Shown: in pieces, positions 15,819 through 32,483 of the stretch
How positions within the stretch are numbered: the stretch's first letter is position 1
Layout: the number at the start of each line of letters is the position of its first letter
Source of the DNA: a virus
Taxonomy: Duplodnaviria; Caudoviricetes
IMG/VR virus record: IMGVR_UViG_3300025387_000016
Coordinates: 5,544-69,543 of that record
Direction: 5' to 3' (one strand)
Length of the DNA stretch: 64,000 nt
Notes under the pieces: model-generated
Seen by the model: the letters and a program-made list of their open reading frames with translations, nothing else
What the model was told of the DNA's origin: nothing
The model's database searches: none
Translations under genes and position numbers: made by a program

Positions 15819-18800
15819 TTATTCCGTGTCTGGGTCGGTGAGCTCCACGCCGGGCATATCAGCATCATCGCCCACGAGCGTCACAGGGCCGTCAAGCGTG
15901 TAGAGGAACTGAACGATACCGACTTCGCCATCTGGCGACCAATAGGTATTACTTCCACGACGAGGTGAGATTGCTTCGGTGTCCATATCTGCCGCCTTGC
16001 TTACGCTTTCCGTTGAGTTGTTCCAACCATAGGCATCAGCAAATGCTTTTTCTGCTGGCGTGTCTCTCAAACCCATTTCCTTTTGAGCATAGGCTTCGGC
16101 GTATGCCTCTTGCATCTTCCAGCACCCATATTGCGTCATACCTAGTTGGCTAAGTGCATCTTTCTCTTTACTTGAAAGTTCTCCGATTCCTGAATCAGTA
16201 TCGGCAAGGAACTTTGGAAGGTCGGCGCGTGAAACGATAAGGTTGCCACCGAAGTCAACTCTTGCGTATTTTGCGTTGGCACGAACGAACTTACCTTGGG
16301 CATCTTTCTGCCCTTTTACCCAATCAACTTTTGGTGATACTTTCAAGAGTTCGTTGAGAACGGGCGTGATTTTTAGGCCGTTCTTAAAGAAATTGCCGTG
16401 ACCGATTTCGTGGATAAGTGTCGCCTCAAGATTTCGTTGAGTGGACATAAACATATCGCCAATGCTGAAAGAGCGACCAATCTTGCCTTGATTTATCTTA
16501 ATGTTGGCATCGTCGGCTTTTTCCAAAGTGCTCTCAATTTTGTTGACCGCATCTCGACCCTCTGGCGTGTCTGACTTACCTTTGATTTGCATTTCAGCAG
16601 TGGCGAGTAGTGCGTTCCAATCCGTTTGGGCCTGTGCGGGGTCGGCCGCACCACGAGTCGGATTGTATTTGGCAATAGATTCCATAAGGTTTCGGCTAAT
16701 GAGACTGTGCTTGCCCATAGCAATAGTATCGGGGTCGCCCATACAAACAGCAGCGAGGGTTCGGGTGCTTAGTTTGCGATTGGTGTCAAAGTCAATCTTC
16801 TTGCCAGTAGACCACTTATCCACGATTGCGAGAACGTTGTTTGTCGCTCGGTCGCCAATCTTCCAACCTCGCGCGGTGTTCCTAAATACGGCAGTGTTTC
16901 CGGCTTTGGAAACATAGACAGTATGGTTATTGCCCTTTTTCAGCATTGACCAACCATCGGGCAATACGCCCTTTCCATACTTCACATCAAGGCGAATACT
17001 TGGAGAGTCTTCTATGGGCGCAGAGTCGTTGGTTTGCTTCGTTCCGCTAGTGCGTGCCTCACTCTGCTCGCCACCCACGCCGTTTTCCCATTGGTTCCCG
17101 TGGAAAACGTGGCCGGGCTTATCCCCTGATTCGCCAGCGACTCCGGTTTTTTTTATTTGTGTATCACCTAACGAGAGTCGTGGGTTGCCGATATGGTCGT
17201 GCCACTCGTTCGCAACGTGGAGCGCGGTCTTGGCATCACACGAGAGTCGTTGGATTGGAAGTTTGTAGTCGGGGTTGGCGGCCTTTATTGCCAATGCTGC
17301 TGACCAATAGTGATGTCCGTCAATGATATAGCCGTCGCTTGACACAAGGGGTGCGCGCTTTTCGGGGATTCCCGTTTCAGCAAACTCCTTAAATACGCCG
17401 CCAGTCTTCCACCCGTCAATCTCGCTCTGTGAGGGCTTGATGGTTCGGGGGTCTACGGCTTCTTGTTTGGCAGTGATTCCATACTTCGCCTCAATATCCT
17501 TTAGGAATTGGGGGCGTTGGCTCGGTAGGATTTGCGGCATATGCTCACGCAGCAAATCAGCATTATTATCAGTCTTAAACGGCTTTTGCCCGTCAACGAC
17601 GAGATTCGTGATGTTGTAGCCCTTGTCTCGCGTCCCTAAGTCGTAGATACCCGTGACGAGTGAGGGCAAATCAGCACTCTTGACTTCGGGGCTCGCACCG
17701 TTGTCGAGTTGTTCGACTACGCCCGATGCGTCATATTGGTTCCCGTGAAATATATGACCGAGAACGTCGCCCTTTAGGACTTCGAGGTGTCGGTTCCACG
17801 CTCGGCGTGAAGTTTGGCCGCCAACTGGCGAGCCAACGTGCGAATCTCGTCCTTGTCCATCTTGTCTATGCCCTTTGGCAACTTGATTACCTGAATCGGG
17901 TTGTGCTTCTCCGACATTTCCTGTGCCTCCTGTGGGTACTTCGTCTTGTGCGGCCACATCCCAAATGGAAATCTGGTCACGGTCTTGGCCGGCCTTGATG
18001 GCCGCTTCCTTATCCTCAATGTTTTCGGATACGTCTAGGTATACTTTACCATCATTTAGCCATAGACCCAAGTAGTTATTCTCTTTGCCGAGCTCGGCTT
18101 GGTGTTTCAGCAGGTAGTCATTGAGGATATCTTCGGTCTTTGCGGGGTCGAAGAAATCCTTTTCGTCAACTACCGCCCCAAACTTCGAGTCGGTGGCAAC
18201 CATAAAGCCCTTGACTGGTTCGCTTCCGTCAATCAACTTGACGCTCAAACCGCCGTTTTCTCGCACCTTTTCAGCAACTTCTTGGGCTACGCCCTCACCA
18301 GTTGTGTATTGGTTGCCGTGAAAATTGTGTCCGGGGAGGTCGCCTTTGTTTACGGGGTCAATGCCACCAGACCACGCACCGTCATCCACCCACGTTCCAT
18401 CGTTCATTTCAGCAGGGCTGTGTTGTTCGCCCATCTGGTCAGTAAACCGGGCTTGCTGGGCTAGTTCCTTTTCGGCCTGTCCACGACCTAGTGCGGCGAG
18501 TGAGTTTCCGTCATCGTCGTTGCCGTAGTGCTTTGAGGCATCAAAGAACGCACGGGCAGCGGCATCGTGCGCTCGTGCTGCTGACTCAAATTGTTCTTTA
18601 CGGCGAAAAGCGTGGGCTTGGTTAGAAAGTTTTTCTGCTTCGGCTACTTTTCCGTGACCTTTGCTTTTATTGTCTTCCTCAAACGACTTGGCTACGGCTT
18701 CACTTGCCTTTTCAGCACGAGCAACCATCTTTTTTGCCCACGCATACCCAGCGTCGCCACCCCACGCATACCACGCCACCTTTCCGGGGCTTGGTTCATT

Positions 18801-19718
18801 CCAATGTGGTGATTGTTTATCAACGCCGTGTCGGTCGAAAAACGCTTTCATACGCTTGAGGGTGTCAAGGGATACAGGGTGGCCATTGGCGAGGTCAGAG
18901 GCGCGTTTACGGCCTACTGACGTGAAGTTGCGACCAGCCTTGCCGTCCGCCATCCACTCAAGGGCTTTCTTGGCCGCTGATTGAACGGCGAGTGGTGGGG
19001 TTTGTGACTCAAAGGCGGCCTTCGCAACGACAACTGCCTCAATCTTTTGGAACGCCGAAATAAGGGCATTGAGGTTCCCCATAAGATTTCCAAACTTGTC
19101 TGCCATACCGAGTGAACCGAATACGCTAGAAAGGGGCATCAACTTTGATTTCAGCACGAGCAGACTTTCGGTAGTCACGCCGCCGTTCCAAAGTTCCGTG
19201 ACCAACTCTGGCTTTGGGAGTCGTGGCCGGAAGTTGCAGAGCGCGTGGTCAATGCCGACAATGCGACCATCTTTAGTCCACATCAAGTTCTTGGGTCGGC
19301 GGTCGGAGTTTGCTGTTAGGTAGTCAAACAAACGAAGGGCGATACCCTGTTCGTTATTGGGGATATCTTCCTTGCCAGCAAGAACGCCGTTGTTTCCCTC
19401 AATAAAAGGCATAATGATACTTTGGGCATCCGAGTTGGTGAAGTAGCAGTCACGGATAGGAGCGTTCATTACTTCGCCCACACGAGCCGCTAGATACTCC
19501 TGTGCGCCGAGCAACTCGCCTCGGTATGTCCTACCACTCTTATTGCCTGTCCAATCCTGTAAACGCTTCTCAACGCCCTTAGAGCCATCAGCAAATGTGA
19601 CGTAGAAGAACCCGTCATTCTGGTTTCCGTGAAAGAGTTTTCCGCCAATAGGTTCTCGGCTAATAATATCCGTGTTCGTAAACGTGACGAAGTTGGGTTG
19701 AAAAACGTTATTGGACAT
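15819..19718 (-). CDS. 1299-aa multidomain tagged head-cargo polyprotein (kinase-like, AWGG domain, ParB-like, zincin)
   Basis: FDYLTANSDRRPKN...IDHA (PI3K/HipA-like); AWYAWGGDAGYAWA; three GHxFHGNQ tags; DGHHYW ParB-like; HEIGH...EAYAEAY zincin. Confidence 0.8.
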   Translation of the reverse strand: MSNNVFQPNFVTFTNTDIISREPIGGKLFHGNQNDGFFYVTFADGSKGVEKRLQDWTGNKSGRTYRGELLGAQEYLAARVGEVMNAPIRDCYFTNSDAQSIIMPFIEGNNGVLAGKEDIPNNEQGIALRLFDYLTANSDRRPKNLMWTKDGRIVGIDHALCNFRPRLPKPELVTELWNGGVTTESLLVLKSKLMPLSSVFGSLGMADKFGNLMGNLNALISAFQKIEAVVVAKAAFESQTPPLAVQSAAKKALEWMADGKAGRNFTSVGRKRASDLANGHPVSLDTLKRMKAFFDRHGVDKQSPHWNEPSPGKVAWYAWGGDAGYAWAKKMVARAEKASEAVAKSFEEDNKSKGHGKVAEAEKLSNQAHAFRRKEQFESAARAHDAAARAFFDASKHYGNDDDGNSLAALGRGQAEKELAQQARFTDQMGEQHSPAEMNDGTWVDDGAWSGGIDPVNKGDLPGHNFHGNQYTTGEGVAQEVAEKVRENGGLSVKLIDGSEPVKGFMVATDSKFGAVVDEKDFFDPAKTEDILNDYLLKHQAELGKENNYLGLWLNDGKVYLDVSENIEDKEAAIKAGQDRDQISIWDVAAQDEVPTGGTGNVGEAQPDSGNQVAKGHRQDGQGRDSHVGSPVGGQTSRRAWNRHLEVLKGDVLGHIFHGNQYDASGVVEQLDNGASPEVKSADLPSLVTGIYDLGTRDKGYNITNLVVDGQKPFKTDNNADLLREHMPQILPSQRPQFLKDIEAKYGITAKQEAVDPRTIKPSQSEIDGWKTGGVFKEFAETGIPEKRAPLVSSDGYIIDGHHYWSAALAIKAANPDYKLPIQRLSCDAKTALHVANEWHDHIGNPRLSLGDTQIKKTGVAGESGDKPGHVFHGNQWENGVGGEQSEARTSGTKQTNDSAPIEDSPSIRLDVKYGKGVLPDGWSMLKKGNNHTVYVSKAGNTAVFRNTARGWKIGDRATNNVLAIVDKWSTGKKIDFDTNRKLSTRTLAAVCMGDPDTIAMGKHSLISRNLMESIAKYNPTRGAADPAQAQTDWNALLATAEMQIKGKSDTPEGRDAVNKIESTLEKADDANIKINQGKIGRSFSIGDMFMSTQRNLEATLIHEIGHGNFFKNGLKITPVLNELLKVSPKVDWVKGQKDAQGKFVRANAKYARVDFGGNLIVSRADLPKFLADTDSGIGELSSKEKDALSQLGMTQYGCWKMQEAYAEAYAQKEMGLRDTPAEKAFADAYGWNNSTESVSKAADMDTEAISPRRGSNTYWSPDGEVGIVQFLYTLDGPVTLVGDDADMPGVELTDPDTE

Positions 19719-20115
19719 AGTTCTTTAGTCCCCCATAGAGCCAAGAGTTCGCCGTACCCTTTGGAGAGCTCGGAGGCTGGATGAAGTTTTGCCCGCTAAC
19801 CAACTTCCAACGATTTGCGAGAGGTTTGGAACAAGTCACACAAGTCCGAGTTTGGTTTCCGGCAGAGAACTGACCAGTTGGCCGCCCTTGATTGTCTCGC
19901 TCAATCCATTGTTCGGGGATAGCGATAGTGTTTTGGTGGCCTGAAGCACAAATAGTCATCAACGTCGCCTTTTGCGGGTCAAAGTGACCTACCCCGCCAA
20001 CGCTGTGCTGATTTCCACGAAAAACGTGACCAGAGAAGTCGCCCTTATAGAACTCTTGATAGACGCCCTCTGGTCCAAGAAGGCTCGCCCTACTAAAGTC
20101 GATTGCTTTCGTCAT
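19708..20115 (-). CDS. Tagged cargo protein with Zn ribbon
   Basis: EFYK-GDFSGHVFRGNQH then CASGH...CVTC. Confidence 0.7.
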   Translation of the reverse strand: MTKAIDFSRASLLGPEGVYQEFYKGDFSGHVFRGNQHSVGGVGHFDPQKATLMTICASGHQNTIAIPEQWIERDNQGRPTGQFSAGNQTRTCVTCSKPLANRWKLVSGQNFIQPPSSPKGTANSWLYGGLKNYVQ

Positions 20116-20127
20116 AATCCTATTATT

Positions 20128-21039
20128 TCACGACTTTTGCGAGTTGGTGTCGGGGGTTGGTGGAGAGGGGGTGTCAAATCCTTGTAGCGATACGTTGTGC
20201 TTCTTATCCCACGCCAAGCCGACATCCATAGCCGTTTTCCAATCGCACGACAATTGATACACCGGCATCGTCGCACTTTTGCCCGCAAACTTCAGCGCAA
20301 CGGCAGCGGCCCAAGTGTGGTGGCCGTCAACAACGTATCCGTCTTTGGAAACGAGGATACGCATACTGTCGGGAATACCATCTGGGTTCTTCCCCATAAT
20401 TCCGCCCGACTTGTCGCCGTTGATTTCCTTTTGGATTGGCTTGAGGGTCGTGGGGTCTACACGCATTGGTTTTACGGTGATTCCGTTTGACTTCTCAATA
20501 TCTTTGAGGAACTGGGGGCGTTCCTTCTCGTCAATTTGTGGCATTTGGCTGCGAGAATAGCCCTTACCATCCAATCCCATAAGGCGAGTTCCGTCAATGC
20601 GAAGATTTGTGATGTCGTTGCCCTTGGTTTTAGTGCGAGCCATTTCAGCAAGAAGGTCGGGCAGGTGCTTGTCCGAGACAACTGGTTGCTCGCCTCGCAT
20701 TAGGGCAAAGTGGATTTCATTCGCCCACGCACGGATTCCCTTTGGCGAGGTATCGGTTGGGTCGCTCTTGATACGAGTGTCGTGGTTTGGAAGAGGCTTC
20801 GGCTCTAACTTATCAGCAACGACAGGCTTGATATCTTGGGTGGTTTGGGGCGAGCCGTATCGGTCGGATGCCACTTGGTTGCGATTCGGGTCGGTTTGAC
20901 GGGCCGGTTGAGCACTAGCCGACGAGTCGGAACCTACCCCTTGTGAGTATTGGTTCCCGTGAAAGGAGTGACCCTCAACATCTCCGACCTTAGCGAGCCT
21001 GACCCACTCAATGATTTGCAAGTCAATTTCAGCAGTCAT
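20128..21039 (-). CDS. Tagged cargo protein with ParB/Srx-like domain
   Basis: IIEWVRLAK-VGDVEGHSFHGNQY; VDPTTLKPIQ...ILVSKDGYVVDGHHTWAA. Start at ATG 21039 (or 21054). Confidence 0.78.
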   Translation of the reverse strand: MTAEIDLQIIEWVRLAKVGDVEGHSFHGNQYSQGVGSDSSASAQPARQTDPNRNQVASDRYGSPQTTQDIKPVVADKLEPKPLPNHDTRIKSDPTDTSPKGIRAWANEIHFALMRGEQPVVSDKHLPDLLAEMARTKTKGNDITNLRIDGTRLMGLDGKGYSRSQMPQIDEKERPQFLKDIEKSNGITVKPMRVDPTTLKPIQKEINGDKSGGIMGKNPDGIPDSMRILVSKDGYVVDGHHTWAAAVALKFAGKSATMPVYQLSCDWKTAMDVGLAWDKKHNVSLQGFDTPSPPTPDTNSQKS

Positions 21040-21077
21040 TGTTGGGCCTTCCAAACTAGGTTCCCAGCAACTTTACC

Positions 21078-21305
21078 CTATCGGATTAGGTTTCCCTGTG
21101 CGTCGTAAGCCCAATCTGGTATTCCGTCTAAGCGGTCTAGGTTCGGCTCGCCTCTAACAATCTTGTCTAGAAGACCGAGACTATCCACCCAACCGTTAGG
21201 GCCGAGAATCTGCGCCTTGTCGCTATCAGCAAAGTCGTAGCGATACCCACCTAGTAGTTGACCATTAGGGGTCCGAACTTCGTAGTAGGTCCAGTTATTT
21301 GCCAT
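21078..21305 (-). CDS. Putative immunity/antitoxin protein for the upstream RelA/SpoT domain
   Basis: 75 aa, no tag, starts 2 nt after the toxin-like gene stop. Function is inferred from position. Confidence 0.5.
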   Translation of the reverse strand: MANNWTYYEVRTPNGQLLGGYRYDFADSDKAQILGPNGWVDSLGLLDKIVRGEPNLDRLDGIPDWAYDAQGNLIR

Positions 21306-21307
21306 AA

Positions 21308-23590
21308 CTATAGTATAGTCTTCTTGACCGAACGGATGCCAACGCCCTCAATGTCCTTGGGAATACGGACTTGTGAGAAACTAGTCATCATTGTTTTCCG
21401 CCCCTCTTCGTATTCAGGGCTACCCTTGCCGGCCTTACGCACGTTGTTGTAAATCTTGTGCATCGCTTCAGCAGTATCCAAACTCTGTTGAGTGTGGAAC
21501 TGAATCTCAACGACCATACCCGTCTTGGGGTCTACGAAGTTTCCGTTGATGCCTCGGTATCCGTTTTCGGGGTCGTTATTAAAGTAGTTCTTTACATACT
21601 CGTTGCCTAAGCGGTCCTTGAGTGGGCTAAATCCTTGCGCACGAAGACTATTCAGCATTTCTAAAGCACCGTTAGTAATTCTCTTTTCCGGCCACGTCAC
21701 GGTGTAGCGAAGCAAGTCGTGGATATGGCTTGCCGTTGCCGTGAGTTGCTCGTGGGTAAGGTCTTTGGTCTTGTTGTAGTCAATAGAGTCTTTGAGAGTC
21801 TTCTCGGTCGCACTCTTGAGTGACTTTATGGCGAAGCGGGCTCGAGTTCGGGTTCCGCCCGATTCCTTTGCTGATTTGGAAATCTCCGCAGACACTCGCT
21901 TGGCCTCCTTGTTGGATGCCACAACGAATGGTCGAGTTGCTTCCATAGCCGCACGAACAAGTGCGGGTGGCAACTTCATTTCGTCGGAGAGTTTGGAAAC
22001 AATCATTTCTGATTCTGCTTGTGAGCCGAAAGGTGGTGTTTCTTCATCCGCACCAGCAGCGGCCTGATACTGATTGCCGTGGAACTCGTGTCCGAGTTTG
22101 TCGCCCTTTTGCACCGTTTCGTCTTCAGGGTTATCGTCGCCGTCTCCGGGAACACGAATGGCTTGGCTTAGGTCAATCGGTACGTTATTCGCAGCGTCAT
22201 CCGCACCCTCTGGGCCGAAGTTAGAGCCGGAGATTTTGGTGGCGTAGTTGTCGGGCATCACCATCGCACCACGGTTGAGAATCATCAAGTAGTTGTGGCT
22301 TTGGTCACGGAGGCCATCGTAACCAGCGAGTGCGGGGGTAAGGCTCTTACAGCCATTGTTCCCCTGAAAACACTCACTACTAATACGGTTCACCTCTTCA
22401 TCGGTGTAACCGGCTTCTTTCATAATCTCACCCATTTTGTAGTCAGGGTGGTCCATAGCATCGTATTTCCTGTGGTCACGAGCATCCGCCGTAATGATGT
22501 CCAACTTCAGCATAGGGCCTTCGCCCTTTGCCTCATAGATATTGGATGGGTCCGTCATCTTCACTCGGAAGATACAGGAGTTTAGGTCCCTAGAGCCACT
22601 TTGGGTCGCATACGTTGATGGCGTTCCCTTATCCGTTGAAGAGTAGAACGCCGCACCAAACATAGGGCCGCCGTAACGTGGGAATCCACCACTAGCGAGC
22701 GTTGCCAACTTCTGCTGAAGTGTCTGTGTCGACCTATATGAGTTGGTAAGACCAGAGTAAGTGACCTTACCCGGCTCAGCACGGAACTCCGCTTCGCTAA
22801 CAAAACGTGGCTTTCCCGTAAAACCGCACATCTTGAGTAGGGCTGCGTTGGCGCGAACATTGCTGTTTACCTTTACGGCATTTGCCTGTGCGAGAGCCTT
22901 GCGGAAATCATCTGGGTTCGTCAAGATGTTGGTGAGGTTTTTTACGAAGAGGGGTTGGCGTTCCTTTGGAACGTAGATTCTTTTGGCAAGTGCGAGGGCA
23001 GATGCCGCAGCCTTTTCTTCGAGCTCGCCCTCGGGCTTCCACTCTTTCGCATCAGCAATACGTTGGGCAAGCGGCTTTTCTCCTTCGGTGGCGTATGTTT
23101 TTTCCGCAACCTCGGTTCGGGGCTCGCTTTCCTTTTCCTCTGCGACAGTTGGCGCTTCTACCTTTGGTTCTTCTTTAGGTGTAGGCGTAGACGTAGGCGT
23201 AGGAGTGGGTGCTGGCGTGGGCGTTTGAGCCGTAGCCGGGGCGGGTGTAGGCGTTGGCACTACTTTTGGCGTTCGTGGCGCGCGAGGGGCTTTAGGGGCC
23301 GCAGGTGCTGATGGCGTAGTCGCTGGCTTGGCCGTAGCGGCACGGGTCTTGCCGGGTTTGGAAACAACCGGAATAGGCGTAGAGGGGCTAGGATATAGTC
23401 GTTTTAGTTCAGCATCTAGAGCAGGACCCTTTAGGGGCTTGTTCGTTGCTGGGTCACGGGGTCGTGGAACAGGAACGCCCCACGGACCCATAACCGTCCA
23501 TTGGTTGCCACGAAACTCGTGACCATCTTTATCACCAGATTGACCAGCAACGCCAACTTTTAGAACTGTAAGGATACTCCGAAAGTCCAC
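21308..23590 (-). CDS. Tagged cargo protein: ART-like domain + C-terminal RelA/SpoT (small alarmone synthetase-like) domain
   Basis: Two tags. Middle: TYSGLT...GAAFYSS...TYA...GYDGL...YLMILN (ART-PolyVal-like). C-terminus: R..IKS..S...K, HDLLRYT, KNYF...YRGIN...EIQFHT. Confidence 0.8.
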   Translation of the reverse strand: MDFRSILTVLKVGVAGQSGDKDGHEFRGNQWTVMGPWGVPVPRPRDPATNKPLKGPALDAELKRLYPSPSTPIPVVSKPGKTRAATAKPATTPSAPAAPKAPRAPRTPKVVPTPTPAPATAQTPTPAPTPTPTSTPTPKEEPKVEAPTVAEEKESEPRTEVAEKTYATEGEKPLAQRIADAKEWKPEGELEEKAAASALALAKRIYVPKERQPLFVKNLTNILTNPDDFRKALAQANAVKVNSNVRANAALLKMCGFTGKPRFVSEAEFRAEPGKVTYSGLTNSYRSTQTLQQKLATLASGGFPRYGGPMFGAAFYSSTDKGTPSTYATQSGSRDLNSCIFRVKMTDPSNIYEAKGEGPMLKLDIITADARDHRKYDAMDHPDYKMGEIMKEAGYTDEEVNRISSECFQGNNGCKSLTPALAGYDGLRDQSHNYLMILNRGAMVMPDNYATKISGSNFGPEGADDAANNVPIDLSQAIRVPGDGDDNPEDETVQKGDKLGHEFHGNQYQAAAGADEETPPFGSQAESEMIVSKLSDEMKLPPALVRAAMEATRPFVVASNKEAKRVSAEISKSAKESGGTRTRARFAIKSLKSATEKTLKDSIDYNKTKDLTHEQLTATASHIHDLLRYTVTWPEKRITNGALEMLNSLRAQGFSPLKDRLGNEYVKNYFNNDPENGYRGINGNFVDPKTGMVVEIQFHTQQSLDTAEAMHKIYNNVRKAGKGSPEYEEGRKTMMTSFSQVRIPKDIEGVGIRSVKKTIL

Positions 23591-23616: not shown

Positions 23617-25335
23617 TTATAGACCTACGATTTTGGTAGCGGCATCCTTAGCGGACTCTGACTGCTTGTAGGCAGCAATAATCTTGTTCGCAAAGTCTTC
23701 GGCTAGTGGAATCTTGTTGTCGGCAATATCGCGCGCTTGCTTGCGATATGACATAGCCTCACTATTTTCCGAAGCGTCGGCCTGTGGGAACTTGCCCTCG
23801 AACTTCTGGTGCGTGAAGAAAACACCACGTCCGGCTTGGACCGCGTTGGCGAGTTCGTCAACTGCTTTCTGTGCCTTTTGTGCTGCGGTTTCGAGGTCGC
23901 CCTTAGCAACGGCGGCCTTAGCATCAGCAGTTGCTTTGTCGGAGTTCTTCAAGTGAGCGTCAAACGAAGCCTTGTATTCACGAATAACGTCATTGAAACC
24001 ACGTTGCATACCAACCCTAGGCATATTTATCAGTGGACCACTCGTGCGTGGGTTCCACTTCGGGTCACGAACCTGTGGGACCTGCTTCGGGTCAATTGGA
24101 ATCTTGCGAGCCTCGTTCTGCTCATTCTTCACGCCACCGCCACCAGTACCCGAAGTGTATTGGTTTCCGTGGAACTCGTGGCCATCTACGTCACCCTTAG
24201 CCAAAATGTATTCTTGGTAAGCGACCGACTTCTCAAAGTCACGGGTAAGAAGTGAGTCGGTGCTGAAAGCACTCATAGCAATAGGCATTTGGTCGCCACT
24301 GTCCACAACGTCGCCCAAGTGGTCGCCCAAATCGCTTTGGTTGATTGCACCATTATCACAGCCATCACAGCCACCGCCCATACAGGAAGGACACATAATC
24401 AGCATCACTGCCTTACTTACTTTCCAGTCATCGGGCAGAGTGTCTACGGCATCGAGGTCCTTGGCACGGTCAATAATGTGAGCCTTGGCCGCATCGTAAT
24501 CCTTGGCACGGCCAACCGACTGAACGGCGTTGGAGATGTCACCCTTGGTTTCGATAGGGAAAGAACCATCGGGCAGAGCGTGACCCTTAGCGGCGAGCTC
24601 GTCACGCTTCTCGTCGGAGAAAGCGCGCTTGCCTACGAAATCAGCAGCCGACTTGAACGTTTCCTTGTTGTTGGCGTGGGCACGAGCGATGATGCTCTTC
24701 GCACGGAGGCGACCGGCTTCGGCGGCGTGAGCCGAGTGAGCCGAGATGTCGCCAGCCTGACGAGCCATACCCGAGAGGCGCTCGTGAGTGTCGGCAAGGG
24801 TCGAAAGGGCATCAGCAGCGGCCTTGGGGTCGGTTCCAGCCATAGCGTCGGCTGCGCCCTCTTCGTTAGCGGTGACTGCGTAAATCTTGGGGTTAGTGAC
24901 CATAGCCTTCTCGTATTCGTACTCGTCCTCGGATGAGTCATCGCCCGAGTAGTCATCATCTGATGAATCGTCGTCATTATCCATCTTTGCCTTCTTGCGA
25001 AGACCCGAGAGAACGGATTTAGCCCTAGCGAGCTCCTCGGATGCAACCTGTGAAGCGATTTCAGCATCACGGAACCCGGCGAGAGCGTTGTTGTAGGAAG
25101 CCTTGAGAACGTCGAGGTTCCAAGCCGACTTCTCGATGGCAGCGAAGTAAGCAACCTTTGAGGCTTCTAGGCTTTCGGTAGCCTTGCGAAGAACAAAGTT
25201 GGCGGTGCTAGCAGCCGACATCGCAACGACCTCGGCACTAGCGGCCTTGGCAATCTGCTTGCTAGCAATTTCGGCATCAAAAGCCTTTTGTCCACGGGGA
25301 ACGTAGGTCGGCTTGACGTTTTGGTTTTCAATCAT
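23617..25335 (-). CDS. Tagged cargo protein with DUF6582-like domain and mini Zn finger
   Basis: RDELAAKGHALPDGSFPI...DISNAVQSVGRAK....HII.RA..L....LPDDW; CPSCMGGGCDGC; ILAK-GDVDGHEFHGNQY. Confidence 0.72.
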   Translation of the reverse strand: MIENQNVKPTYVPRGQKAFDAEIASKQIAKAASAEVVAMSAASTANFVLRKATESLEASKVAYFAAIEKSAWNLDVLKASYNNALAGFRDAEIASQVASEELARAKSVLSGLRKKAKMDNDDDSSDDDYSGDDSSEDEYEYEKAMVTNPKIYAVTANEEGAADAMAGTDPKAAADALSTLADTHERLSGMARQAGDISAHSAHAAEAGRLRAKSIIARAHANNKETFKSAADFVGKRAFSDEKRDELAAKGHALPDGSFPIETKGDISNAVQSVGRAKDYDAAKAHIIDRAKDLDAVDTLPDDWKVSKAVMLIMCPSCMGGGCDGCDNGAINQSDLGDHLGDVVDSGDQMPIAMSAFSTDSLLTRDFEKSVAYQEYILAKGDVDGHEFHGNQYTSGTGGGGVKNEQNEARKIPIDPKQVPQVRDPKWNPRTSGPLINMPRVGMQRGFNDVIREYKASFDAHLKNSDKATADAKAAVAKGDLETAAQKAQKAVDELANAVQAGRGVFFTHQKFEGKFPQADASENSEAMSYRKQARDIADNKIPLAEDFANKIIAAYKQSESAKDAATKIVGL

Positions 25336-25404: not shown

Positions 25405-25611
25405 CTAGAGGACCTCGGTGTCCATATTCGATGAGTCATCTTCGGGGTAGATGTAGTTATCTGGCACGGCATCATCTAGCCAACCGAAACTCTGACTATT
25501 TTTGCGTTGCTCATCAAGCGTGACGTATTCGGGCTTTTTCAGCACGTTGCCTACTACTTGTTTGTAAAGCCGAGACTTTAGAAGTTCCTCAATCTCAAAC
25601 GGATTACTCAT
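25405..25611 (-). CDS. Small protein coupled to the upstream cargo gene
   Basis: 68 aa starting MSNPFEIEELLK at ATG 25611, overlapping the upstream stop (ATGAGTAA). Confidence 0.55.
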   Translation of the reverse strand: MSNPFEIEELLKSRLYKQVVGNVLKKPEYVTLDEQRKNSQSFGWLDDAVPDNYIYPEDDSSNMDTEVL

Positions 25612-27211
25612 CTTGGTCAGGCGAGTCACGCAAAAGCATATCGGGGTATACACCGTGTTGGCTCTTGCCATCGGTGGGGGTTTCCGCTTCAGCAGCGGCC
25701 GAGGCGGCGGCGGCCTCGGCACTAGCCTTCATCCACGCATCGTGGTCTTTGTCGGCCTTGCCATCGCTAACTCGACCCTCTTGGTTCCCAACATTGGATT
25801 CGATTGCCTTGTTCGCTGCCATCGCCGCAACCTCGTGGGCGTGAGCGGCGGCCTCGTGCAAAGCAGCAGCCTGACGAAAGGCGTAAGCCCTATAGCCATT
25901 TCCGCCAGAACGCTCGTGCTGTGCGGCAACCGCCATAAGTGCGCGCGCAGCGTCGTGGTGGTCATTGGCAAGGTTCGTGTGCTCTACGTCAGGTAGGTAG
26001 TTTCCGTGACCCCCACCACTCTTTGAGTCTTTGTCGAGATTTGCGGCCTTTTCAGCAAGGTTCGCACCCTCAATGTCCTTACTTGCCAACTTTGACGGGT
26101 CAACATTGACACTTCCGGCGTAGTGCCCCTCTCGTGTTGAGTGAGTAAACGCACCATACCGTCCATTGGAACCGGGAACTGTTGACAATTTCATCTGTGG
26201 GGTCGCTTGGGATTCGCTCTGCTCGGTTTGGATACCGGCCTGTCGGTCGGCATTGACCGCTTCTGGCACTACGGAATCCGAGGCATCAGTCGCCGTGCCA
26301 GAGGCTTCCTTGGCACTCTCGATAGCCCCATCTAACTCATCGGGGTCTTGTGATGGGTTGCCGAGCATATCAGCAACCTTGTTCCAAGCCTCTGATGCGT
26401 TGGCGTGTTCGTCACTAGCGTCGGCGTGGAGGATTTCTGCGTTCAGGTGGGTTTCATCATCGTTCTGTATGCGGATTCCCTCGTTGTAGTGCGCTAATGA
26501 CTGCGCCGAGTGTTCGTCGGCAATCTTCTTTGCGGCACTTGCGGGGCTATTGCGGTCGAACTTGTCAATTTGATTACCATCATAGATTTGACGGGCTTTT
26601 TCGGCAAGGTCTTTCGCGCCCTCCGTGGCACTCGAATACTGATTTCCGTGAAACTCGTGACCGGGGACGTCACCCTTGGCAACGCCGAAGTTCCAAACCT
26701 CAACGCCATCTTCTCCGATTTCAGCAACTCCGGCAACTGCCTTATACATATCGGCAAGCCCGGGAACCTGTCCACGGGATACGGGGTTGTTGATTGTCTC
26801 AACGGGGTAAGTGTCGGATTCGGCAACGGTCGTACCCGTAACGCCAGCGTCGGTAACTGATTCAGCAGGGGTTCCATTGAGGGCGTGAACGAGCTCGAAC
26901 GCTTGTTGTGCCTTGGCTTGTTGTTCCTTGGCCGCTTCGAGGTACTCCGTGCGAGCGAGAGTGTTGTATGAGGAGGCGCGAATGAAGTAGTCGCTTGCCT
27001 CAAGGTGTTGTTGGCCGCACGTCATCAACGCATTGGTAGCACCGGGAATATCACCACTCTGCTCGCACGATACGGCAAGGTTATAAAAGTCCTCTGCCTT
27101 GTTCGCACGGTCCATAGCAAACGTGATTGACTCGTTGTAGAGCGCACCGGGCGAGGTCTTCGTGATAGTGGTAATCCACTCGGTGGCGGCGTTGAGGACA
27201 TTGTCGGTCAT
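25604..27211 (-). CDS. Tagged cargo protein, Ala/His-rich helical bundles
   Basis: GVAK-GDVPGHEFHGNQY; repeated H..AA..H..A helices. Confidence 0.75.
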   Translation of the reverse strand: MTDNVLNAATEWITTITKTSPGALYNESITFAMDRANKAEDFYNLAVSCEQSGDIPGATNALMTCGQQHLEASDYFIRASSYNTLARTEYLEAAKEQQAKAQQAFELVHALNGTPAESVTDAGVTGTTVAESDTYPVETINNPVSRGQVPGLADMYKAVAGVAEIGEDGVEVWNFGVAKGDVPGHEFHGNQYSSATEGAKDLAEKARQIYDGNQIDKFDRNSPASAAKKIADEHSAQSLAHYNEGIRIQNDDETHLNAEILHADASDEHANASEAWNKVADMLGNPSQDPDELDGAIESAKEASGTATDASDSVVPEAVNADRQAGIQTEQSESQATPQMKLSTVPGSNGRYGAFTHSTREGHYAGSVNVDPSKLASKDIEGANLAEKAANLDKDSKSGGGHGNYLPDVEHTNLANDHHDAARALMAVAAQHERSGGNGYRAYAFRQAAALHEAAAHAHEVAAMAANKAIESNVGNQEGRVSDGKADKDHDAWMKASAEAAAASAAAEAETPTDGKSQHGVYPDMLLRDSPDQDE

Positions 27212-27257
27212 AGGAACTCCCTTACGTTCAGTCTAAATAATAGACTGCGATATAGAT

Positions 27258-29492
27258 TTACAGGGCATATGACCGTTCGCGCTGATAAGCGTTGTTCTTT
27301 ACTTTTGCTTCGTCCATCTTCGCTTTGACCTCATCTCGCTGACTTGTGAGTTTGGCGACATCCTTGTTTTCCGACATTTCGGAAGGGGGGGTGCTCTGTA
27401 TCTGCTTGTTGATGGCTTCGTAAGCGATTTTGTATTGCTCGAAAGCGTTGTGCCACGCATACATAGGGTTATCGCTATTGGGGTCCTTGGCGCTCGCCAC
27501 TTCAGCATCGCCGTTTTTGAGGGCCGAGGCAAGCACCTTTTCGTCGTGGTTGCTCGTTAGGGCATTGAGTGTTGCCTCCGCTTGACCAGCCGCTTTGTCA
27601 ATCGAGTCGGAGATGCTCTTCTTATCAGCATCAGAGAGGGGAGAGCTCGCTACCGTTCGGCGCGCTCCATCGAAGTAGTATTTTGCGTCGTTTAGGGCAT
27701 CCATAACGTTCTCCGACCGATACATATAACTATTCGGGTCGGTTTTGTTGATGTCCTTAGTGTCCACCTCTGGGAGTGTCTTGGCGTTCTCGATTGCGAC
27801 AAGCGCCTTGTTCTTTCCGGTGATTAGGTCGGAGAAGACGGATGACTCGGTTCCTAGTTTGGAAGCCTCTTTGTACTTGCCCTCAAACCCCGATGTCTGC
27901 TTTCCGTAAACACTAGTGCCGACTCCCGAACACTTGCTGACGAATGAAAGGTAGTCATTAGCCTTTGCGATTTTCTCTGGGTCGTTACTATCTGCGTTCT
28001 CACGGATGTAATCCATCATTTGATGGCCGATTGCTAGGTGGGCATCGGCAATCTTCCTGCCAATCTCCTGTACCTCGGGGGCGTTTGCCTTGTATTCATC
28101 CAACTTCTTTTGGGCGAGGCTCGAATCTTCACCTAATGCGTTCTTCGCCGCTTGCACCTCTTCCCAAGCACTTTTCGCATCGCTTGTTTCACGAACGAGG
28201 TTTTTGTATTCGCCATACGCCTTTGATGCGTTGATGAGGTTTTCGGGTTGTCTTACCGACAAAACCGAATCGGTAACGATTTTGTCTAGGCTTCCCGTGC
28301 CGACCTTTGGCATAAGGGTCTTTAGGCTTTCTTTGGCCTGATTTACTGCGACATCCTCTGATAGAGCCGAGTAGATTTTCAACTCCGCCCTTACCTTTTC
28401 AGCAGTGCTTTGGGCGACACTCCGAGATGGGTTGTCGTATTGGAGGCCGTTTATTAGGGTAGTAATTGCTCTTAGGGAGAGCACGGCTTTTTGCCGTGCG
28501 TCGGTGATTTCCTGCGAGGCTTTTTCGGTCGTTGGGTCAAACGTGGCGGGGTCAACTATTTCTTTCGCTCTATTTAGGTAAACCTCGGAAGCCTTTGATG
28601 CGATACCAAGACCATTGGTTTGGAGGTATTTCTCTGCGGTGGCCGCACCAGCATCGCTCTTTTGGGCATTCTTTTTAGCAGCGAGCTCGTTTGCCGAGTC
28701 GTTTGCCATACGGTAAACCTGCGTGAGAAAGTTGTTGGCTTTCTCGGCATTTTTTGCCATCGCTGACCAAGAAAAAAGTGCCGAATAACGCTCGGTGGGT
28801 TCGGCGTTCTCATCTTGGGCGGTCTTTGCGGCCGTCTTGTAATCGTTGCTAATACGCTCTACGTCTTTGACGACAATTGCGAGTGCCTCTGGTCGGGGCT
28901 GGTTGTTCTTGTCGAACAGGCTCTTAGCCTTTGGTGGGGTAATCATCCCCACAATAAGTTCTTTGTAGCCACGGTTCAGCGCGGTAACGGCATCCTTGCT
29001 AAGAGACTGAATCGTGTGGTCACCACGACTACTCCATCCGGCGCTAATATTTGGGTCCTGAACAATCTCTTCTTCTCTTACCTTGTTGTTGAACTGGAGT
29101 AAGAGGTCTTTTTTAGTGGGGTCATTCTGGTATCCCGGCCAATCACCCGGATGCATACCCGCAGCGATAACCTTTTGCCTTAGGTCCTCGACCTCTGCCT
29201 TTATGTTTGCACCCTTTTTCTGGGAAGCGACCTTGTGGTCAATGGCATCCATCGCTGCCTTGGCTAAATCACCATCGAGTGAGTAACCGTGGCCTCGACT
29301 GCTATTGCGCCTACGCCCCTCTTTCTTTAGTCTAGAAACCCGGTCACCCTCGCTATTTGCCAATTGAGCGTGCTCGCCCGCAGTCGTGGTCGTGTATTGG
29401 TTTCCGTGAAACTCGTGACCAACGTAGTCACCCTTGAGGATGACAAACCGTTCGCTAACTAGGAACTTGCGGAGCTCGTAAATGGAGGGCAT
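27258..29492 (-). CDS. Tagged cargo protein, 744 aa, all-helical, unknown function
   Basis: VILK-GDYVGHEFHGNQY at residue 20. Confidence 0.75.
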   Translation of the reverse strand: MPSIYELRKFLVSERFVILKGDYVGHEFHGNQYTTTTAGEHAQLANSEGDRVSRLKKEGRRRNSSRGHGYSLDGDLAKAAMDAIDHKVASQKKGANIKAEVEDLRQKVIAAGMHPGDWPGYQNDPTKKDLLLQFNNKVREEEIVQDPNISAGWSSRGDHTIQSLSKDAVTALNRGYKELIVGMITPPKAKSLFDKNNQPRPEALAIVVKDVERISNDYKTAAKTAQDENAEPTERYSALFSWSAMAKNAEKANNFLTQVYRMANDSANELAAKKNAQKSDAGAATAEKYLQTNGLGIASKASEVYLNRAKEIVDPATFDPTTEKASQEITDARQKAVLSLRAITTLINGLQYDNPSRSVAQSTAEKVRAELKIYSALSEDVAVNQAKESLKTLMPKVGTGSLDKIVTDSVLSVRQPENLINASKAYGEYKNLVRETSDAKSAWEEVQAAKNALGEDSSLAQKKLDEYKANAPEVQEIGRKIADAHLAIGHQMMDYIRENADSNDPEKIAKANDYLSFVSKCSGVGTSVYGKQTSGFEGKYKEASKLGTESSVFSDLITGKNKALVAIENAKTLPEVDTKDINKTDPNSYMYRSENVMDALNDAKYYFDGARRTVASSPLSDADKKSISDSIDKAAGQAEATLNALTSNHDEKVLASALKNGDAEVASAKDPNSDNPMYAWHNAFEQYKIAYEAINKQIQSTPPSEMSENKDVAKLTSQRDEVKAKMDEAKVKNNAYQRERSYAL

Positions 29493-29498
29493 TAGTGA

Positions 29499-30848
29499 TT
29501 AGTAGTCCTCAAGTGATGGGAAGACGGTTTCATCGGCGGTTGTGTAGGGGGATTTTGGTAAATAGTCAGAACGCATAGAGGTCGTACCTCTATACATAGT
29601 GCCGTAGGAGTCATTTTTGTCAAATCCCACCGTGCGCATTTTGTATTCGGTTCCGGCCTTTGTTGCCTTCGCTTGGTATTCTTTGGCTTTTTCAGCATCG
29701 CCGGCCTTATTCGCCGCCGCCGCAGCAACGGCGTATCCAGCGTAGACTCGACCCAAAGCCTCTAGATAGTTTCTCTGCGCCTCATTTACAGTTCTTGACG
29801 CACTATCAAAGTTGTCATAATCCTCGCCAGTGGCATCGTGGCTAGCGTAGTGAACACCCTCGTCAGACTGAAGACCAATCTTTTCCGCAATATCGTTGTA
29901 TTTGTCCTCTGCGTCTCCCCAAGTCTTTTCTAATGATGGGATTTCTTTTTCAGCACTTTGGGCATCCGTTAGAGCCTTAGCCCCCATTTCTGGCGTCGAA
30001 CTGACTAGACCCTTATCCGATAACGCTGCCTTCAAGATTGTTTGGTGCATCGCAAGGTTCGCACTTACAAGAGCAGACTGTAGTTTCTCAATCTCATTAG
30101 GAATCGGGTTCCCGCCAGTTCGCCCAGCATAGTCATAGTCAATTTGCGAACTAAGCAAATTGCTAGCGTTATATATGTCACCAATTGGCTGTGGGGTTTT
30201 GCCGTAATAGGTTGTTAGCACCGCCCCCTCTAGGGGCTTACTTAGAGCCTTTTCGATTCCCTTTGAGATACTTTGAGCGTGTTCTTGGACATTTTTTAGT
30301 TCATTGTCTACGTTGGCAAAACTAATCGTAGCCGACCGTCTAGGTGCAATACGTCCATTGGTATCACTGTATACAAGTTGTGATAGGCGAATACTCGCAC
30401 GAAGCCCATCGCAACGAGAGTAGATTTCGTCGGCAAGAGCCTTGGCTTTCCCTAACTGCTTTCCCGTGTAGTAAGAAGTAATCTTAGTACCGTTCGGAAG
30501 AGATATTTCCTCGGACCCTAGGGGCGATTTAGGCTTTAGGTTTCCTAGACCCTCTCGCTCAAGTAGCGCAGTTTGCGGATAATCCCAAAGAGAGTTTGGC
30601 TCTATAAGAGCCAAATCTTTTTTCTGCTCAAGTTCACTTTGGGATGAGTCGGGTTGCTGACCATACCCATATCTTCCAATGTCGTAGGTTTTCCCGGCGA
30701 TATTGGATACCAATCGCAACTCGTTGATTTGAGCATCTGCGTTGGTCCATTGGTTGCCATTGAAAGCGTGACCGGGAGTGTCTCCCGAGCCCGGGCCACC
30801 CTTAGCAACCCGAATCCAGTTTTCGATTTCAGCATTTACGTTTGTCAT
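29499..30848 (-). CDS. Tagged cargo protein, 449 aa, unknown function
   Basis: AEIENWIRVAK-GGPGSGDTPGHAFNGNQW. Confidence 0.75.
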   Translation of the reverse strand: MTNVNAEIENWIRVAKGGPGSGDTPGHAFNGNQWTNADAQINELRLVSNIAGKTYDIGRYGYGQQPDSSQSELEQKKDLALIEPNSLWDYPQTALLEREGLGNLKPKSPLGSEEISLPNGTKITSYYTGKQLGKAKALADEIYSRCDGLRASIRLSQLVYSDTNGRIAPRRSATISFANVDNELKNVQEHAQSISKGIEKALSKPLEGAVLTTYYGKTPQPIGDIYNASNLLSSQIDYDYAGRTGGNPIPNEIEKLQSALVSANLAMHQTILKAALSDKGLVSSTPEMGAKALTDAQSAEKEIPSLEKTWGDAEDKYNDIAEKIGLQSDEGVHYASHDATGEDYDNFDSASRTVNEAQRNYLEALGRVYAGYAVAAAAANKAGDAEKAKEYQAKATKAGTEYKMRTVGFDKNDSYGTMYRGTTSMRSDYLPKSPYTTADETVFPSLEDY

Positions 30849-30863
30849 AGTTTCTACTCTGCT

Positions 30864-32483
30864 TTACGCCTGTGACACGGACTTCTTGAACTTGTCGTTG
30901 TCGAAGTAACCCGTTGGATTCCCGTCAGTTCCCTTGTAGAAGTCATCATACGCTTGTAGCGCGGCATCAACCTTTGCTTGCGCCTTGGGCGCATCCTTGG
31001 CGTATTCACCAGATGCCATATAGTGCGTTGAGTTGGCAACGGCGTTGCCGTTGTCATCTCGGGTAGAACCACGAAATCCCGAGCGCAGAGCTCCGACCGC
31101 AGATGAGGCAGACGTTAGTTTGGAAATCAAGTCCTTGTAATCAGCAGCCGAGCGTGTTGGGTTGTTTCCGCCACCCTTAGTGAACTTTGAGCCACCAGCA
31201 AGAGCCTCGTTCTTGAGGTCGGTAATGCGGTCTTGGATTGCCTCACGGATGGAACCAAGTTCACCACGAACGCGCGTGGATGCGAAGCCGTGGTCTGGGT
31301 CGGCAAGTTTCGTCATTGAGGTTGCGGCGAGTCGGAAGTCTTCTAAGCGATTCGAGGTAGTACCCGAGATGATGTTGCGCCCACGGTCGCCGGTCGAAGC
31401 ACTAGCAGGGCTATAGGTACTAGAAGCATCGTTAGCCGTTACTCCATCGGGGCGTTGATTGTTTCCCCTGCGCCAATACGAGTTCCCTTGGAGTTTCTCG
31501 CCCTCATCGGGGTCTTGACGGTTTGAGTTGGTGGGCGGTGCTGATTGACTTGCGGCAACGTTACGGAGATTTGCCGCAATCTTCTCGTGTTCAAGGGCAA
31601 GAGCATTGAGGTCTTGTGGAGTGTTACCGCTACTATCCACTTTGAGGTGATTGTTTACAAGAGTCTGGGCCGCTGCGGTAAGCGAGCTCGGGGTCGAGTA
31701 TTGGACTTGGTAGGGGTGTGAGAACTTATTGGCGTTTGGAGTCGGTGTCGGCTCTGGGTGGCGCATCTCACTTTGTTCGCTCTGAATACCAGTCGGGTTT
31801 GTGCGAACTGTCGCCAACAACCTATCCACCTTGTCAACCGCTTCTCGTGCGGCCTTTTCAGCAGTTAGTGCCGTTGCACTTGAATCTTCTGCCTTTTTGG
31901 TTGAGTCAATCGCCTTGTCTTTGGTGGCGGCCCAAGTGCGAGTGGTGTCTTGGTGGGCAAACATAGCGTTTAGGTGGTCTTTCTTGGCGGTGTTAGCCGC
32001 CTCGACTGCCTTAGCGATAGCGGAACGGGCTTCCGCCTTTAGTTTGTATGTCTTACTACCGGATGAAAAAAACGATTCACCAGAGGTAGGCAAGACCTTT
32101 TGGTTTAGTTCGTCTAACTCTCTTTTTTGCTTGTCGTGAAGATTGGAAATATCCCAGTGTTCACGCGCGGCAACATTGGACCGGAATACTCCAGTTCCTA
32201 CTTTGCCCGAAATTGCTTTTGCTCGGTCTGCCGCTTCAGCACCACTTGAGTATTGATTCCCGTGAAACTCGTGCCCGACAACATCACCCTTAGTGACTTC
32301 AGCCTGAACCTCTGCGTATTTGGCTCGCTTTTGAGCGCAATCTGCCTCTGAGGTGCAAGGTGCGTCGCCGTGCATCTTGTGCCAATTGTCGTGGTCTTGG
32401 TCGTGGCGAATCACGTCAGCAAGGGATTCGTTCATACCCTTTGCTACGGAGAGCCAAATAGCGATTTCCGATTCAATAGACAT
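30864..32483 (-). CDS. Tagged cargo protein, 539 aa, unknown function
   Basis: SEIAIWLSVAK leader, His/Cys mini-domain (HDQDHDNWHKMHGDAPC..C), EVTK-GDVVGHEFHGNQY. Confidence 0.75.
   Translation of the reverse strand: MSIESEIAIWLSVAKGMNESLADVIRHDQDHDNWHKMHGDAPCTSEADCAQKRAKYAEVQAEVTKGDVVGHEFHGNQYSSGAEAADRAKAISGKVGTGVFRSNVAAREHWDISNLHDKQKRELDELNQKVLPTSGESFFSSGSKTYKLKAEARSAIAKAVEAANTAKKDHLNAMFAHQDTTRTWAATKDKAIDSTKKAEDSSATALTAEKAAREAVDKVDRLLATVRTNPTGIQSEQSEMRHPEPTPTPNANKFSHPYQVQYSTPSSLTAAAQTLVNNHLKVDSSGNTPQDLNALALEHEKIAANLRNVAASQSAPPTNSNRQDPDEGEKLQGNSYWRRGNNQRPDGVTANDASSTYSPASASTGDRGRNIISGTTSNRLEDFRLAATSMTKLADPDHGFASTRVRGELGSIREAIQDRITDLKNEALAGGSKFTKGGGNNPTRSAADYKDLISKLTSASSAVGALRSGFRGSTRDDNGNAVANSTHYMASGEYAKDAPKAQAKVDAALQAYDDFYKGTDGNPTGYFDNDKFKKSVSQA

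Follow-up and report, generated by a model that had tools for sequence, protein, structure and literature searches.

A header peptide shared by otherwise unrelated, putatively head-carried proteins of uncultured tailed phages

A twelve-copy peptide in nine consecutive genes

Nine consecutive minus-strand genes (15819-32483) of an uncultured tailed phage (Duplodnaviria; Caudoviricetes) share a short peptide of 16 residues, called here the tag, with the pattern [VIL]-x-K-GDxxGHxF[HR]GNQ[YW], of which they hold exactly 12 copies. The window analyzed, i.e., the whole stretch of 64 kb, covers positions 5,544 to 69,543 of IMG/VR record IMGVR_UViG_3300025387_000016, which is 69.5 kb long and ca. 56% complete (CheckV). 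A six-frame regular-expression scan of the 64 kb returned these 12 copies and none further, and the 69.5-kb record holds the same 12. Along the stretch G-D-x-x-G-H-x-F-x-G-N-Q, all 12 copies agree in G, D, G, H, F, G, N, and Q. With a profile built from 147 tags, the copies score 35 to 55 bits, and the next-best site of the window scores 3.5 bits. A candidate thirteenth copy (LFHGNQN, at ca. 19634) was rejected at 0.5 bits. The array directly follows the genes of a Mu-type portal protein (34609..36222, minus strand, 537 amino acids [aa]; Pfam Portal_Mu, E = 1.4e-34) and of a 633-aa head protein (32545..34446, minus strand) that ends in an XkdF-type protease domain.

In the order of transcription, all on the minus strand and with tag cores measured from GD to [YWH], the genes are as follows. 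Gene 1 (30864..32483, 539 aa) starts with the leader MSIESEIAIWLSVAK, has one tag at aa 66-78 (GDVVGHEFHGNQY, 32250..32288, 51.9 bits), and found no match in Pfam or PHROG. Gene 2 (29499..30848, 449 aa) has a leader ending in AEIENWIRVAK and then a GGPGSGD-type tag at aa 22-34 (GDTPGHAFNGNQW, 30747..30785, 40.7 bits). Gene 3 (27258..29492, 744 aa), with its tag at aa 21-33 (GDYVGHEFHGNQY, 29394..29432, 42.6 bits), had no family match in Pfam or PHROGs and no usable match in the ESM Atlas. Genes 4 (25604..27211, 535 aa) and 5 (23617..25335, 572 aa) are made up of two modules each, with an internal tag at aa 180-192 (GDVPGHEFHGNQY, 26636..26674, 52.1 bits) and aa 381-393 (GDVDGHEFHGNQY, 24157..24195, 55.3 bits), respectively. 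Gene 6 (21308..23590, 760 aa) carries a tag of the K-VGVAGQS-GD variant at aa 19-31 (GDKDGHEFRGNQW, 23498..23536, 36.5 bits) and a second one at aa 496-508 (GDKLGHEFHGNQY, 22067..22105, 41.1 bits). It matches phrog_7625 (E = 3.5e-12), and its last module is RelA/SpoT-like (RelA_SpoT, E = 1.9e-4, 22.1 bits, under the cut-off of 27). Gene 7 (20128..21054, 308 aa) consists of a leader, the tag (GDVEGHSFHGNQY, 20947..20985, 40.8 bits), and a phrog_2859-type module (E = 1.1e-43); the start of this open reading frame (ORF) is more likely the ATG at 21039 (MTAEIDLQ...). The small gene 8 (19708..20115, 135 aa) has a GNQH variant of the tag at aa 25-37 (GDFSGHVFRGNQH, 20005..20043, 40.6 bits). Finally, gene 9 (15819..19718, 1299 aa), which matches phrog_2859 and phrog_17808, has three internal tags, at aa 459-471 (GDLPGHNFHGNQY, 18306..18344, 46.5 bits), aa 650-662 (GDVLGHIFHGNQY, 17733..17771, 35.6 bits), and aa 865-877 (GDKPGHVFHGNQW, 17088..17126, 37.0 bits).

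The 1299-aa protein thus comprises four modules, the 760-, 572-, and 535-aa proteins two each, and the other five a single one; tags are internal in four of the nine proteins, with a maximum of three copies per protein in the window. Once the tags were masked, BLAST found no similarity among the nine proteins except for one shared, paralogous module (residues 671-839 of the 1299-aa protein and 118-282 of the 308-aa protein, 46% identity). Searches of Pfam and PHROGs with whole proteins and single modules gave almost no matches, and seven of the nine proteins match no known family. The enzyme-like matches of the window are the RelA/SpoT one, in a single module, and a weak match to PI3_PI4_kinase. 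Single modules of the 1299-aa protein have stand-alone relatives in cultured phages, and the 20-kb block had no match among phages by megablast. Three of the tagged genes share a leader of the family AEIxxWIRxAK. The same leader (AEIESWIRLAK) is found, without a tag, in a 76-aa DUF5872 gene elsewhere in the window (58679-58909, minus strand; Pfam E = 1.5e-9), and DUF5872 is also a module within tagged proteins outside the window (P0069 and P0117).

A preliminary description of this DNA had reported 12 copies of the motif in nine genes directly after the portal and the XkdF protease, near N termini or in front of internal domains, in proteins otherwise largely unrelated and with no named family for the motif. 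The scan and the profile scores reproduce the copies and their places, the portal and protease matches (the latter to PF14550, above its cut-off) confirm the position of the array, the masked comparison leaves just the one shared module, and the placement of the tag holds for a much larger set of proteins (see below). As for a family, no Pfam, PHROG, or PDB entry covers the tag, and no PDB chain carries it.

Conservation and distribution of the tag

Amino acids common to two tags are encoded by the same codon in 53% of cases, compared with 50% expected from codon usage, and the median exact nucleotide run common to two tags is 9 bases. Because codon choice is random and the shared runs are short, we infer that the repeat is kept by selection on the peptide and that recent DNA copying is no explanation. 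DNA-level copying and a recombination joint were rejected on these codon statistics and on the lack of DNA-level homology.

The tag is widespread among viral sequences. In a word-indexed search with a profile of the twelve copies, 8,000 candidates were scored, and at least 188 protein clusters proved to have the tag, many of them in several copies. With the 147-tag profile, an exhaustive hidden Markov model (HMM) search of 1.84 billion representatives retrieved 2,404 clusters at E ≤ 1e-3, of which 513 also reach E ≤ 1e-10, and a single protein can have as many as nine copies; the figure of 2,404 is a lower bound, because most proteins with one copy do not attain significance. The pattern GHxF[HR]GNQ matched 568 stretches of IMG/VR, 322 of which were confirmed. 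One genome from each of 185,579 bacterial and archaeal species yielded just 53 matching stretches, 15 of them confirmed and nearly all on contigs of metagenome-assembled genomes (MAGs). Because these 15 are all that was confirmed in such a large set, the tag is essentially absent from the cellular chromosomes, plasmids, and prophages of sequenced species. The MAGs with tag matches are labeled Actinomycetota, Verrucomicrobiota, Acidobacteriota, and Chloroflexota, which are binning assignments and not hosts. A tblastn search of 50,697 phage records with a 45-aa tag segment gave nothing useful, the query being too short. Full-text literature searches for the motif strings led to unrelated papers only. 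The tag is a strongly selected, phage-specific header peptide that has apparently not been described before.

The tag opens each module

The consensus of 377 copies is [VIL]-x-K-G-D-[VL]-P-G-H-[EP]-F-[HR]-G-N-Q-[YW]-T-x-G-x-G-G-G. The K is conserved in 81% of them and the following G and D in 96% and 89%, the G and H of the GH pair reach 97% and 98%, and the position two residues before the K is hydrophobic. Eight residues are near-invariant over more than 600 distinct copies.

The position of the tag within proteins was measured on 219 proteins with 767 tags and compared with random placement. The first tag lies less than 45 aa from the N terminus in 47% of the proteins (random, 16%), and the last one lies less than 60 aa from the C terminus in 1.8% (random, 21%). 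The median spacing between tags is ca. 205 residues, roughly one domain. The tag is, therefore, a header that opens each module. The leaders that precede it at the N terminus are short and diverse, and since some have just 3 to 6 residues, the leader cannot be a general targeting signal.

AlphaFold2, run on an alignment of 147 tag sequences, predicted no secondary structure (predicted local distance difference test [pLDDT] near 60). The prediction does not support a folded mini-domain, and the tag looks like a linear motif that would need a partner. A likeness to the 2A peptides of picornaviruses (L-x-K-x-A-GDVE-x-NPGP) was set aside as coincidental; the tag lacks the NPGP end, and 2A skipping is not, to our knowledge, known to work on bacterial ribosomes.

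Proteins and genomes that carry the tag

Precomputed or scanned Pfam domains of tagged proteins include ADPrib_exo_Tox, ART, ART-PolyVal, PARP, DRAT, GNATs, ParB-type nucleases, eukaryotic-type topoisomerase I (Topo IB), Zeta toxin, LigT/2'-5' RNA ligase, SprT-like, PI3/PI4-kinase-like, pentapeptide repeats, NUDIX, DUF5872, and Phage_Mu_F. Judged from these matches, the repertoire is that of the phage-type polyvalent proteins. The effector set proposed in the preliminary description is thus recognizable in the domains of the tagged relatives; in the window itself, it comes down to the one RelA/SpoT match below the cut-off.

Close relatives keep the order of portal, XkdF polyprotein, and tagged genes, but their tagged genes vary in number, size, and module content. 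Tagged modules are also fused to structural proteins. In L002, where 24 tags are found in 24.5 kb, a 2,646-aa ORF consists of a portal (PF04860), a weak MuF match, and a series of tagged modules, and L003 has a portal-LigT-kinase-like fusion followed by a tagged SprT-like protein. In the tagged proteins that contain MuF, this domain is an internal module, itself preceded by a tag. A cassette of tag plus module has been placed inside the XkdF polyprotein itself in L030 and L067, between its Cys-rich region and the protease domain.

Relatives of the phrog_2859-type module in genes 7 and 9 lie directly after the portals of L097 and L081. Another segment of this type in the 1299-aa protein (residues 238-370) matches the N terminus of a polyprotein of Roseobacter phage CRP-811, and the protease-scaffold-capsid architecture of this match fits with a location of the segment inside the head. 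The CRP-811 ORF in question (L096, 4559-7009, 816 aa) is annotated as "major capsid protein" and looks like a polyprotein, apparently joining a phrog_2859-like N-domain, an HK97-type protease motif (EVSVVSIPAD), an Ala/Glu-rich scaffold-like stretch, and the capsid protein.

Not all of the tagged genes have head genes as neighbors. In L097, they come after tail-like genes, and in L098, a 2,588-aa protein with nine tags is located among helicase, methylase, ParB, kinase, and WhiB genes; both contigs are still phage-like. With this nine-tag protein among genes of DNA metabolism, the tag is not strictly confined to portal-protease neighborhoods.

Other peptides occur at the position of the tag. 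The peptide GSGNFGHxGRPGxVGGS is found at the equivalent boundary in eight tagged proteins (including P0092, P0128, P0136, P0211, and ORFs of L081), and one tagged protein (P0102) has the header NPNHDERGRF. G-S-G-[DN]-x-x-G-H is common to the former peptide and to the GGPGSGD-x-PGH variant of the window, which hints at a family of interchangeable headers.

The XkdF protein and the residue before GD

The 633-aa head protein consists of a conserved N-domain, a poly-Ser tract, a Cys-rich region, and the C-terminal XkdF-type protease domain (ca. aa 490-633; 32545-32976, minus strand). PF14550 (Peptidase_S78_2) matches the whole protein with 33.3 bits and the domain alone with 37.5 bits (cut-off, 24). 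An alignment of 15 XkdF domains has an invariant Ser120 (G-[YF]-S-x-G-G) and a nearly invariant His28 (DAHGEW), the candidate catalytic residues. The poly-Ser tract is nearly pure over ca. 90 residues (33500-33900; aa ca. 195-290), and shorter Ser tracts are found at the same place in L030 and L067.

A word-indexed homologue search with the N-domain found one protein. Its AlphaFold2 model (pLDDT 68) gave a best E value of 0.026 with Foldseek against BFVD and a best Z score of 4.4 with VIA-align against PDB representatives, values that speak neither for nor against a MuF-like fold. At E ≤ 10, PF04233 (MuF) has no match in the whole ca. 56%-complete record, including the nine tagged proteins and the 633-aa protein. 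None is detectable in a complete 121-kb relative, and 4 of 23 relatives have a PF04233 match. The system had been put forward as MuF independent, which is true of this record and of the complete relative; it does not hold in general, the tag being a header of modules in MuF-, portal-, and protease-fused polyproteins.

Of 23 long tag-bearing viral records, mostly fragments, 15 contain XkdF, and at most of the loci examined it lies in an ORF of 500 to 690 aa that directly precedes the first tagged gene. With a narrow XkdF HMM derived from the relatives, there were no weak matches in L002, L003, L022, and L081 (L097 to L099 were not scanned), and Peptidase_S78 and ClpP are absent from five XkdF-negative viral fragments. 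The literature searched on the XkdF cleavage site and on HK97 held nothing usable.

The residue before GD differs among lineages. In all 32 XkdF-bearing loci, 154 tags have K, 31 have S, and 5 have V at this position, and none has L, A, or N. The S class corresponds to the GGPGSGD and GVAGxSGD variants, in which a hydrophobic-x-K is still present 5 or 7 residues before it. L is found instead in 10 of 10 tags of L097 and in 8 of 8 of L099, and L081 has A or L. Because this residue is uniform within a phage and variable between lineages while the core is unchanged, it can be read as a P1 position; the pattern fits what would be expected at a phage-specific protease site.

In Arthrobacter phage Salgado (L001), the XkdF domain forms the C-terminal third of gp18 (14389-15510), annotated as "RNA ligase," and gp17, annotated as "capsid maturation protease," has no similarity to the protease protein of the window. 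PHROGs labeled RNA ligase and DNA methyltransferase also end in an XkdF domain. Such enzyme-XkdF fusions may themselves be head cargo.

Neighboring genes and probable host

On the minus strand, the genes follow the order SSB (36968-37411) and WhiB (36203-36592), portal, 633-aa protein, the nine tagged genes (from 32483 to 15819), a transglycosylase-like gene, a split C5 methyltransferase and an exonuclease, scaffold-like genes, and the major capsid protein (6538-7539). The tagged genes are thus placed between portal/protease and scaffold/capsid, among late or virion genes. The portal is ca. 51% identical to those of Arthrobacter phages Salgado, Laroye, and Shrooms, and the capsid protein is 49% identical to its nearest cultured relatives, also Arthrobacter phages (Salgado/Laroye group). 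Since these are the nearest cultured relatives of both proteins, this kinship points to an actinobacterial host.

Next to the capsid gene are a Gly/Thr-rich protein of 253 aa that matches a "scaffolding" PHROG (7560-8321, minus strand) and an Ala/Glu-rich, helical scaffold-like protein of 260 aa (phrog_13547; 8321-9103, minus strand), residues 1-30 of which are 70% identical to Salgado, with the remainder unrelated. The latter may be the true scaffold and the former a decoration protein. The tagged block ends with an untagged 207-aa protein (15033-15656, minus strand) that has a signal-peptide-like N terminus, a His/Pro-rich stretch, and a weak match to Rpf-type transglycosylases (E = 1e-3); one relative has a similar gene after its tagged block. 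At 12173-14938 (minus strand), the catalytic ORF of the C5 cytosine methyltransferase is followed by three short ORFs, each of which matches the C-terminal part of the DNA_methylase profile.

Possible role of the tag

The tagged proteins are most likely phage-type polyvalent or internal proteins that would be built into the head and delivered together with the DNA. The explanation that we favor, with as much chance of being wrong as of being right, is that the tag combines a phage-specific cut site with a universal core and serves as the header of the modules of such proteins. The first element would be the hydrophobic-x-K, directly before GD or, in the GGPGSGD and GVAGxSGD variants, 5 to 7 residues upstream, where the chain would be cut, most likely by the XkdF-type prohead protease of the phage itself. 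Such a cut would free the modules of the polyproteins and remove the short N-terminal leaders. The core, GDxxGHxF[HR]GNQ[YW], with the flexible stretch rich in Gly, Ser, and Thr that follows, would then be the new N terminus of each released module and would be read by something common to very different phages. Our preferred guess is that it serves for the sorting or ejection of each module, for example, in an ordered exit through the portal and the tail channel, rather than for the initial targeting to the capsid.

Several observations weigh against this explanation. No cultured tag-bearing phage was identified (with the limit of query length mentioned above for the phage records), and a single module of the window has an enzyme match, a weak one. 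The nine-tag protein of L098 has no head gene within 10 kb. As for the cut, ca. 4% of the tags have no K within the 13 residues upstream, and the conserved stretch on the primed side, with its 13 residues or more, is far longer than what a prohead protease normally reads; with 13 conserved residues after the putative site, the tag must therefore do more than be cut. The XkdF domain of Salgado is 69% identical to that of the window, yet there is no tag in the first 32 kb of this phage, so the protease does not need tags, and by this comparison the enzyme is the general head protease and not a tag-specific one. Besides, no protease was identified in the stretches examined of the L- and A-type lineages, L002, and L003, which leaves the link of the P1 residue with the protease a putative one. 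The association of XkdF and tag may also be simply the shared ancestry of the IMG/VR relatives.

The preliminary description had seen in the tag a protease site combined with a capsid-targeting or ejection signal. The residue before GD gives indirect backing to the first half. The second half leads to an alternative in which the tag would be purely a capsid-targeting peptide, tag and linker binding the inner side of the HK97-fold shell or the scaffold, with cleavage incidental or absent. A linear motif joined to a Gly-rich linker, in a head-gene context and near the start after a short leader in 47% of the proteins, would suit this role. However, modules already fused to a portal, to MuF, or to the protease still carry one tag each, and polyproteins have up to nine where one would suffice, which weakens the targeting claim. 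The core is, besides, near-invariant across portal families (Portal_Mu here, Phage_portal in L002 and L003), whose shell proteins are presumably divergent too. On balance, we hold targeting alone to be unlikely.

We think it quite improbable that the tag is a self-processing linker, its Asp, His, His/Arg, Asn, and Gln cleaving the chain without a dedicated protease, e.g., after ejection, so that the modules are released in the host. The conserved polar residues of catalytic type (D, H, H/R, N, and Q, over 13 positions) and the presence of the tag in lineages with neither XkdF nor another protease found in the stretch examined, as would suit a function that needs no partner, would agree with it. 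However, the prediction gives the isolated tag no structure, it has no match among known self-cleaving motifs or solved structures, and a residue before GD that depends on the lineage points to an external reader.

The tag could also act in the infected cell, by binding a conserved bacterial factor (chaperone, protease adaptor, or nucleic-acid machine) or by averting degradation. One tag per module, always N-terminal, and a core conserved across phages with probably different hosts (four phyla, by the MAG labels) speak for such a signal, but these labels are binning assignments rather than hosts, and structural modules such as MuF bear the tag as well. It resembles no host-factor binding motif known to us. 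Taken together, this makes such a function very unlikely. Finally, that the tag is a passive junction, either a conserved linker without any role or a recombination joint for module shuffling like the VENN-type pre-toxin motifs, is suggested by the way in which module order and content differ between close relatives, and cassettes are inserted in new places, while the tags stay, but it seems highly improbable given the random synonymous codons and 9-nucleotide median runs, which leave no DNA homology to drive recombination, and the near-invariance of eight residues over so many copies, unexpected of a spacer.

How phages choose, process, and eject the proteins carried in their heads is largely unknown outside T4, P22, T7, N4, and the phiKZ group, and the question would become testable with a peptide that marks each cargo module across thousands of uncultured phages. 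The tag would be a sequence handle for head cargo, and hence for early anti-defense and host-takeover enzymes, in metagenomes where domain searches fail, and it would provide predicted cut sites that could be checked by N-terminomics. Should the core be a loading or ejection signal, chosen proteins could be loaded in a simple way into the capsids of laboratory phages. A bolder extension, rather unlikely in our view, is that the tag and the GSGNFGHxGRPGxVGGS and NPxHDxxGRF headers belong to one universal "cargo code" of tailed phages, a phage-specific cut site joined to a conserved N-terminal threading signal for the exit of each freed module, together with the DNA, through portal and tail; if so, any protein might be made deliverable by phages through the addition of ca. 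20 residues.

Comparison with known systems

Internal proteins IPI to IPIII and Alt of phage T4 bear a capsid-targeting sequence that is removed by the prohead protease gp21, and the ejection proteins of phiKZ and SPN3US are cut at a short motif. The T4 sequence has ca. 10 residues, is phage-specific, occurs once per protein, and is discarded. The tag is similar in being a short N-terminal peptide shared by unrelated, putatively head-internal proteins and located beside a protease site (also putative here). However, its core is conserved over thousands of clusters and recurs before every module, and the sequences are dissimilar. The T4 arrangement of one N-terminal copy per protein is not found either, since four of the nine proteins have internal tags and the copy number reaches three here and nine elsewhere, and the protease family at this locus is XkdF (S78_2-like), not that of T4 gp21.

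The cargo-loading peptides of encapsulins are usually C-terminal, are found once per cargo, and covary with the shell. Like the tag, they are short linear motifs with a flexible Gly-rich linker, attached to unrelated enzymes in a system with an HK97-fold shell, but the tag is N-terminal to each module, is present in multiple copies, and is found also on portal-fused chains. VENN junctions of polymorphic toxins, as in CdiA, show conservation of the DNA itself, and there is one per protein, before the C-terminal toxin. They share with the tag the presence of a conserved short motif at the boundary before swappable modules; in contrast, the tag has no DNA-level conservation and precedes every module.

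The MuF polymorphic toxins (Jamet et al. 2017, PMC5576092), for which no linker motif or cleavage is mentioned in that paper, place a variable toxin-like module in the same portal-proximal slot, and some tagged proteins elsewhere hold MuF together with ART or ADPrib_exo_Tox. However, MuF in tagged proteins is an internal, tag-headed module and not an N-terminal anchor, and this record has no MuF match. MuF toxins belong to temperate phages, whereas the tag is nearly absent from cellular genomes and hence from the prophages of sequenced species.

Phage-type polyvalent proteins are large proteins of 2 to 15 domains whose genes lie next to head genes and for which packaging and injection have been proposed, with zincin metallopeptidase domains proposed for their processing (Iyer et al. 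2017, PMC5512222); the text of that work contains no GNQ string and no conserved linker peptide. The tagged relatives share ART-PolyVal, ParB, GNAT, SprT/zincin, and MuF with them, and four proteins of the window (1299, 760, 572, and 535 aa) likewise have several unrelated modules per chain. The difference is that the window has no zincin or MuF match and that its modules are distributed over nine genes, each headed by the tag. The concept of the polyvalent protein would thus be extended to modules that are spread over many genes and are nevertheless recognizable as one system.

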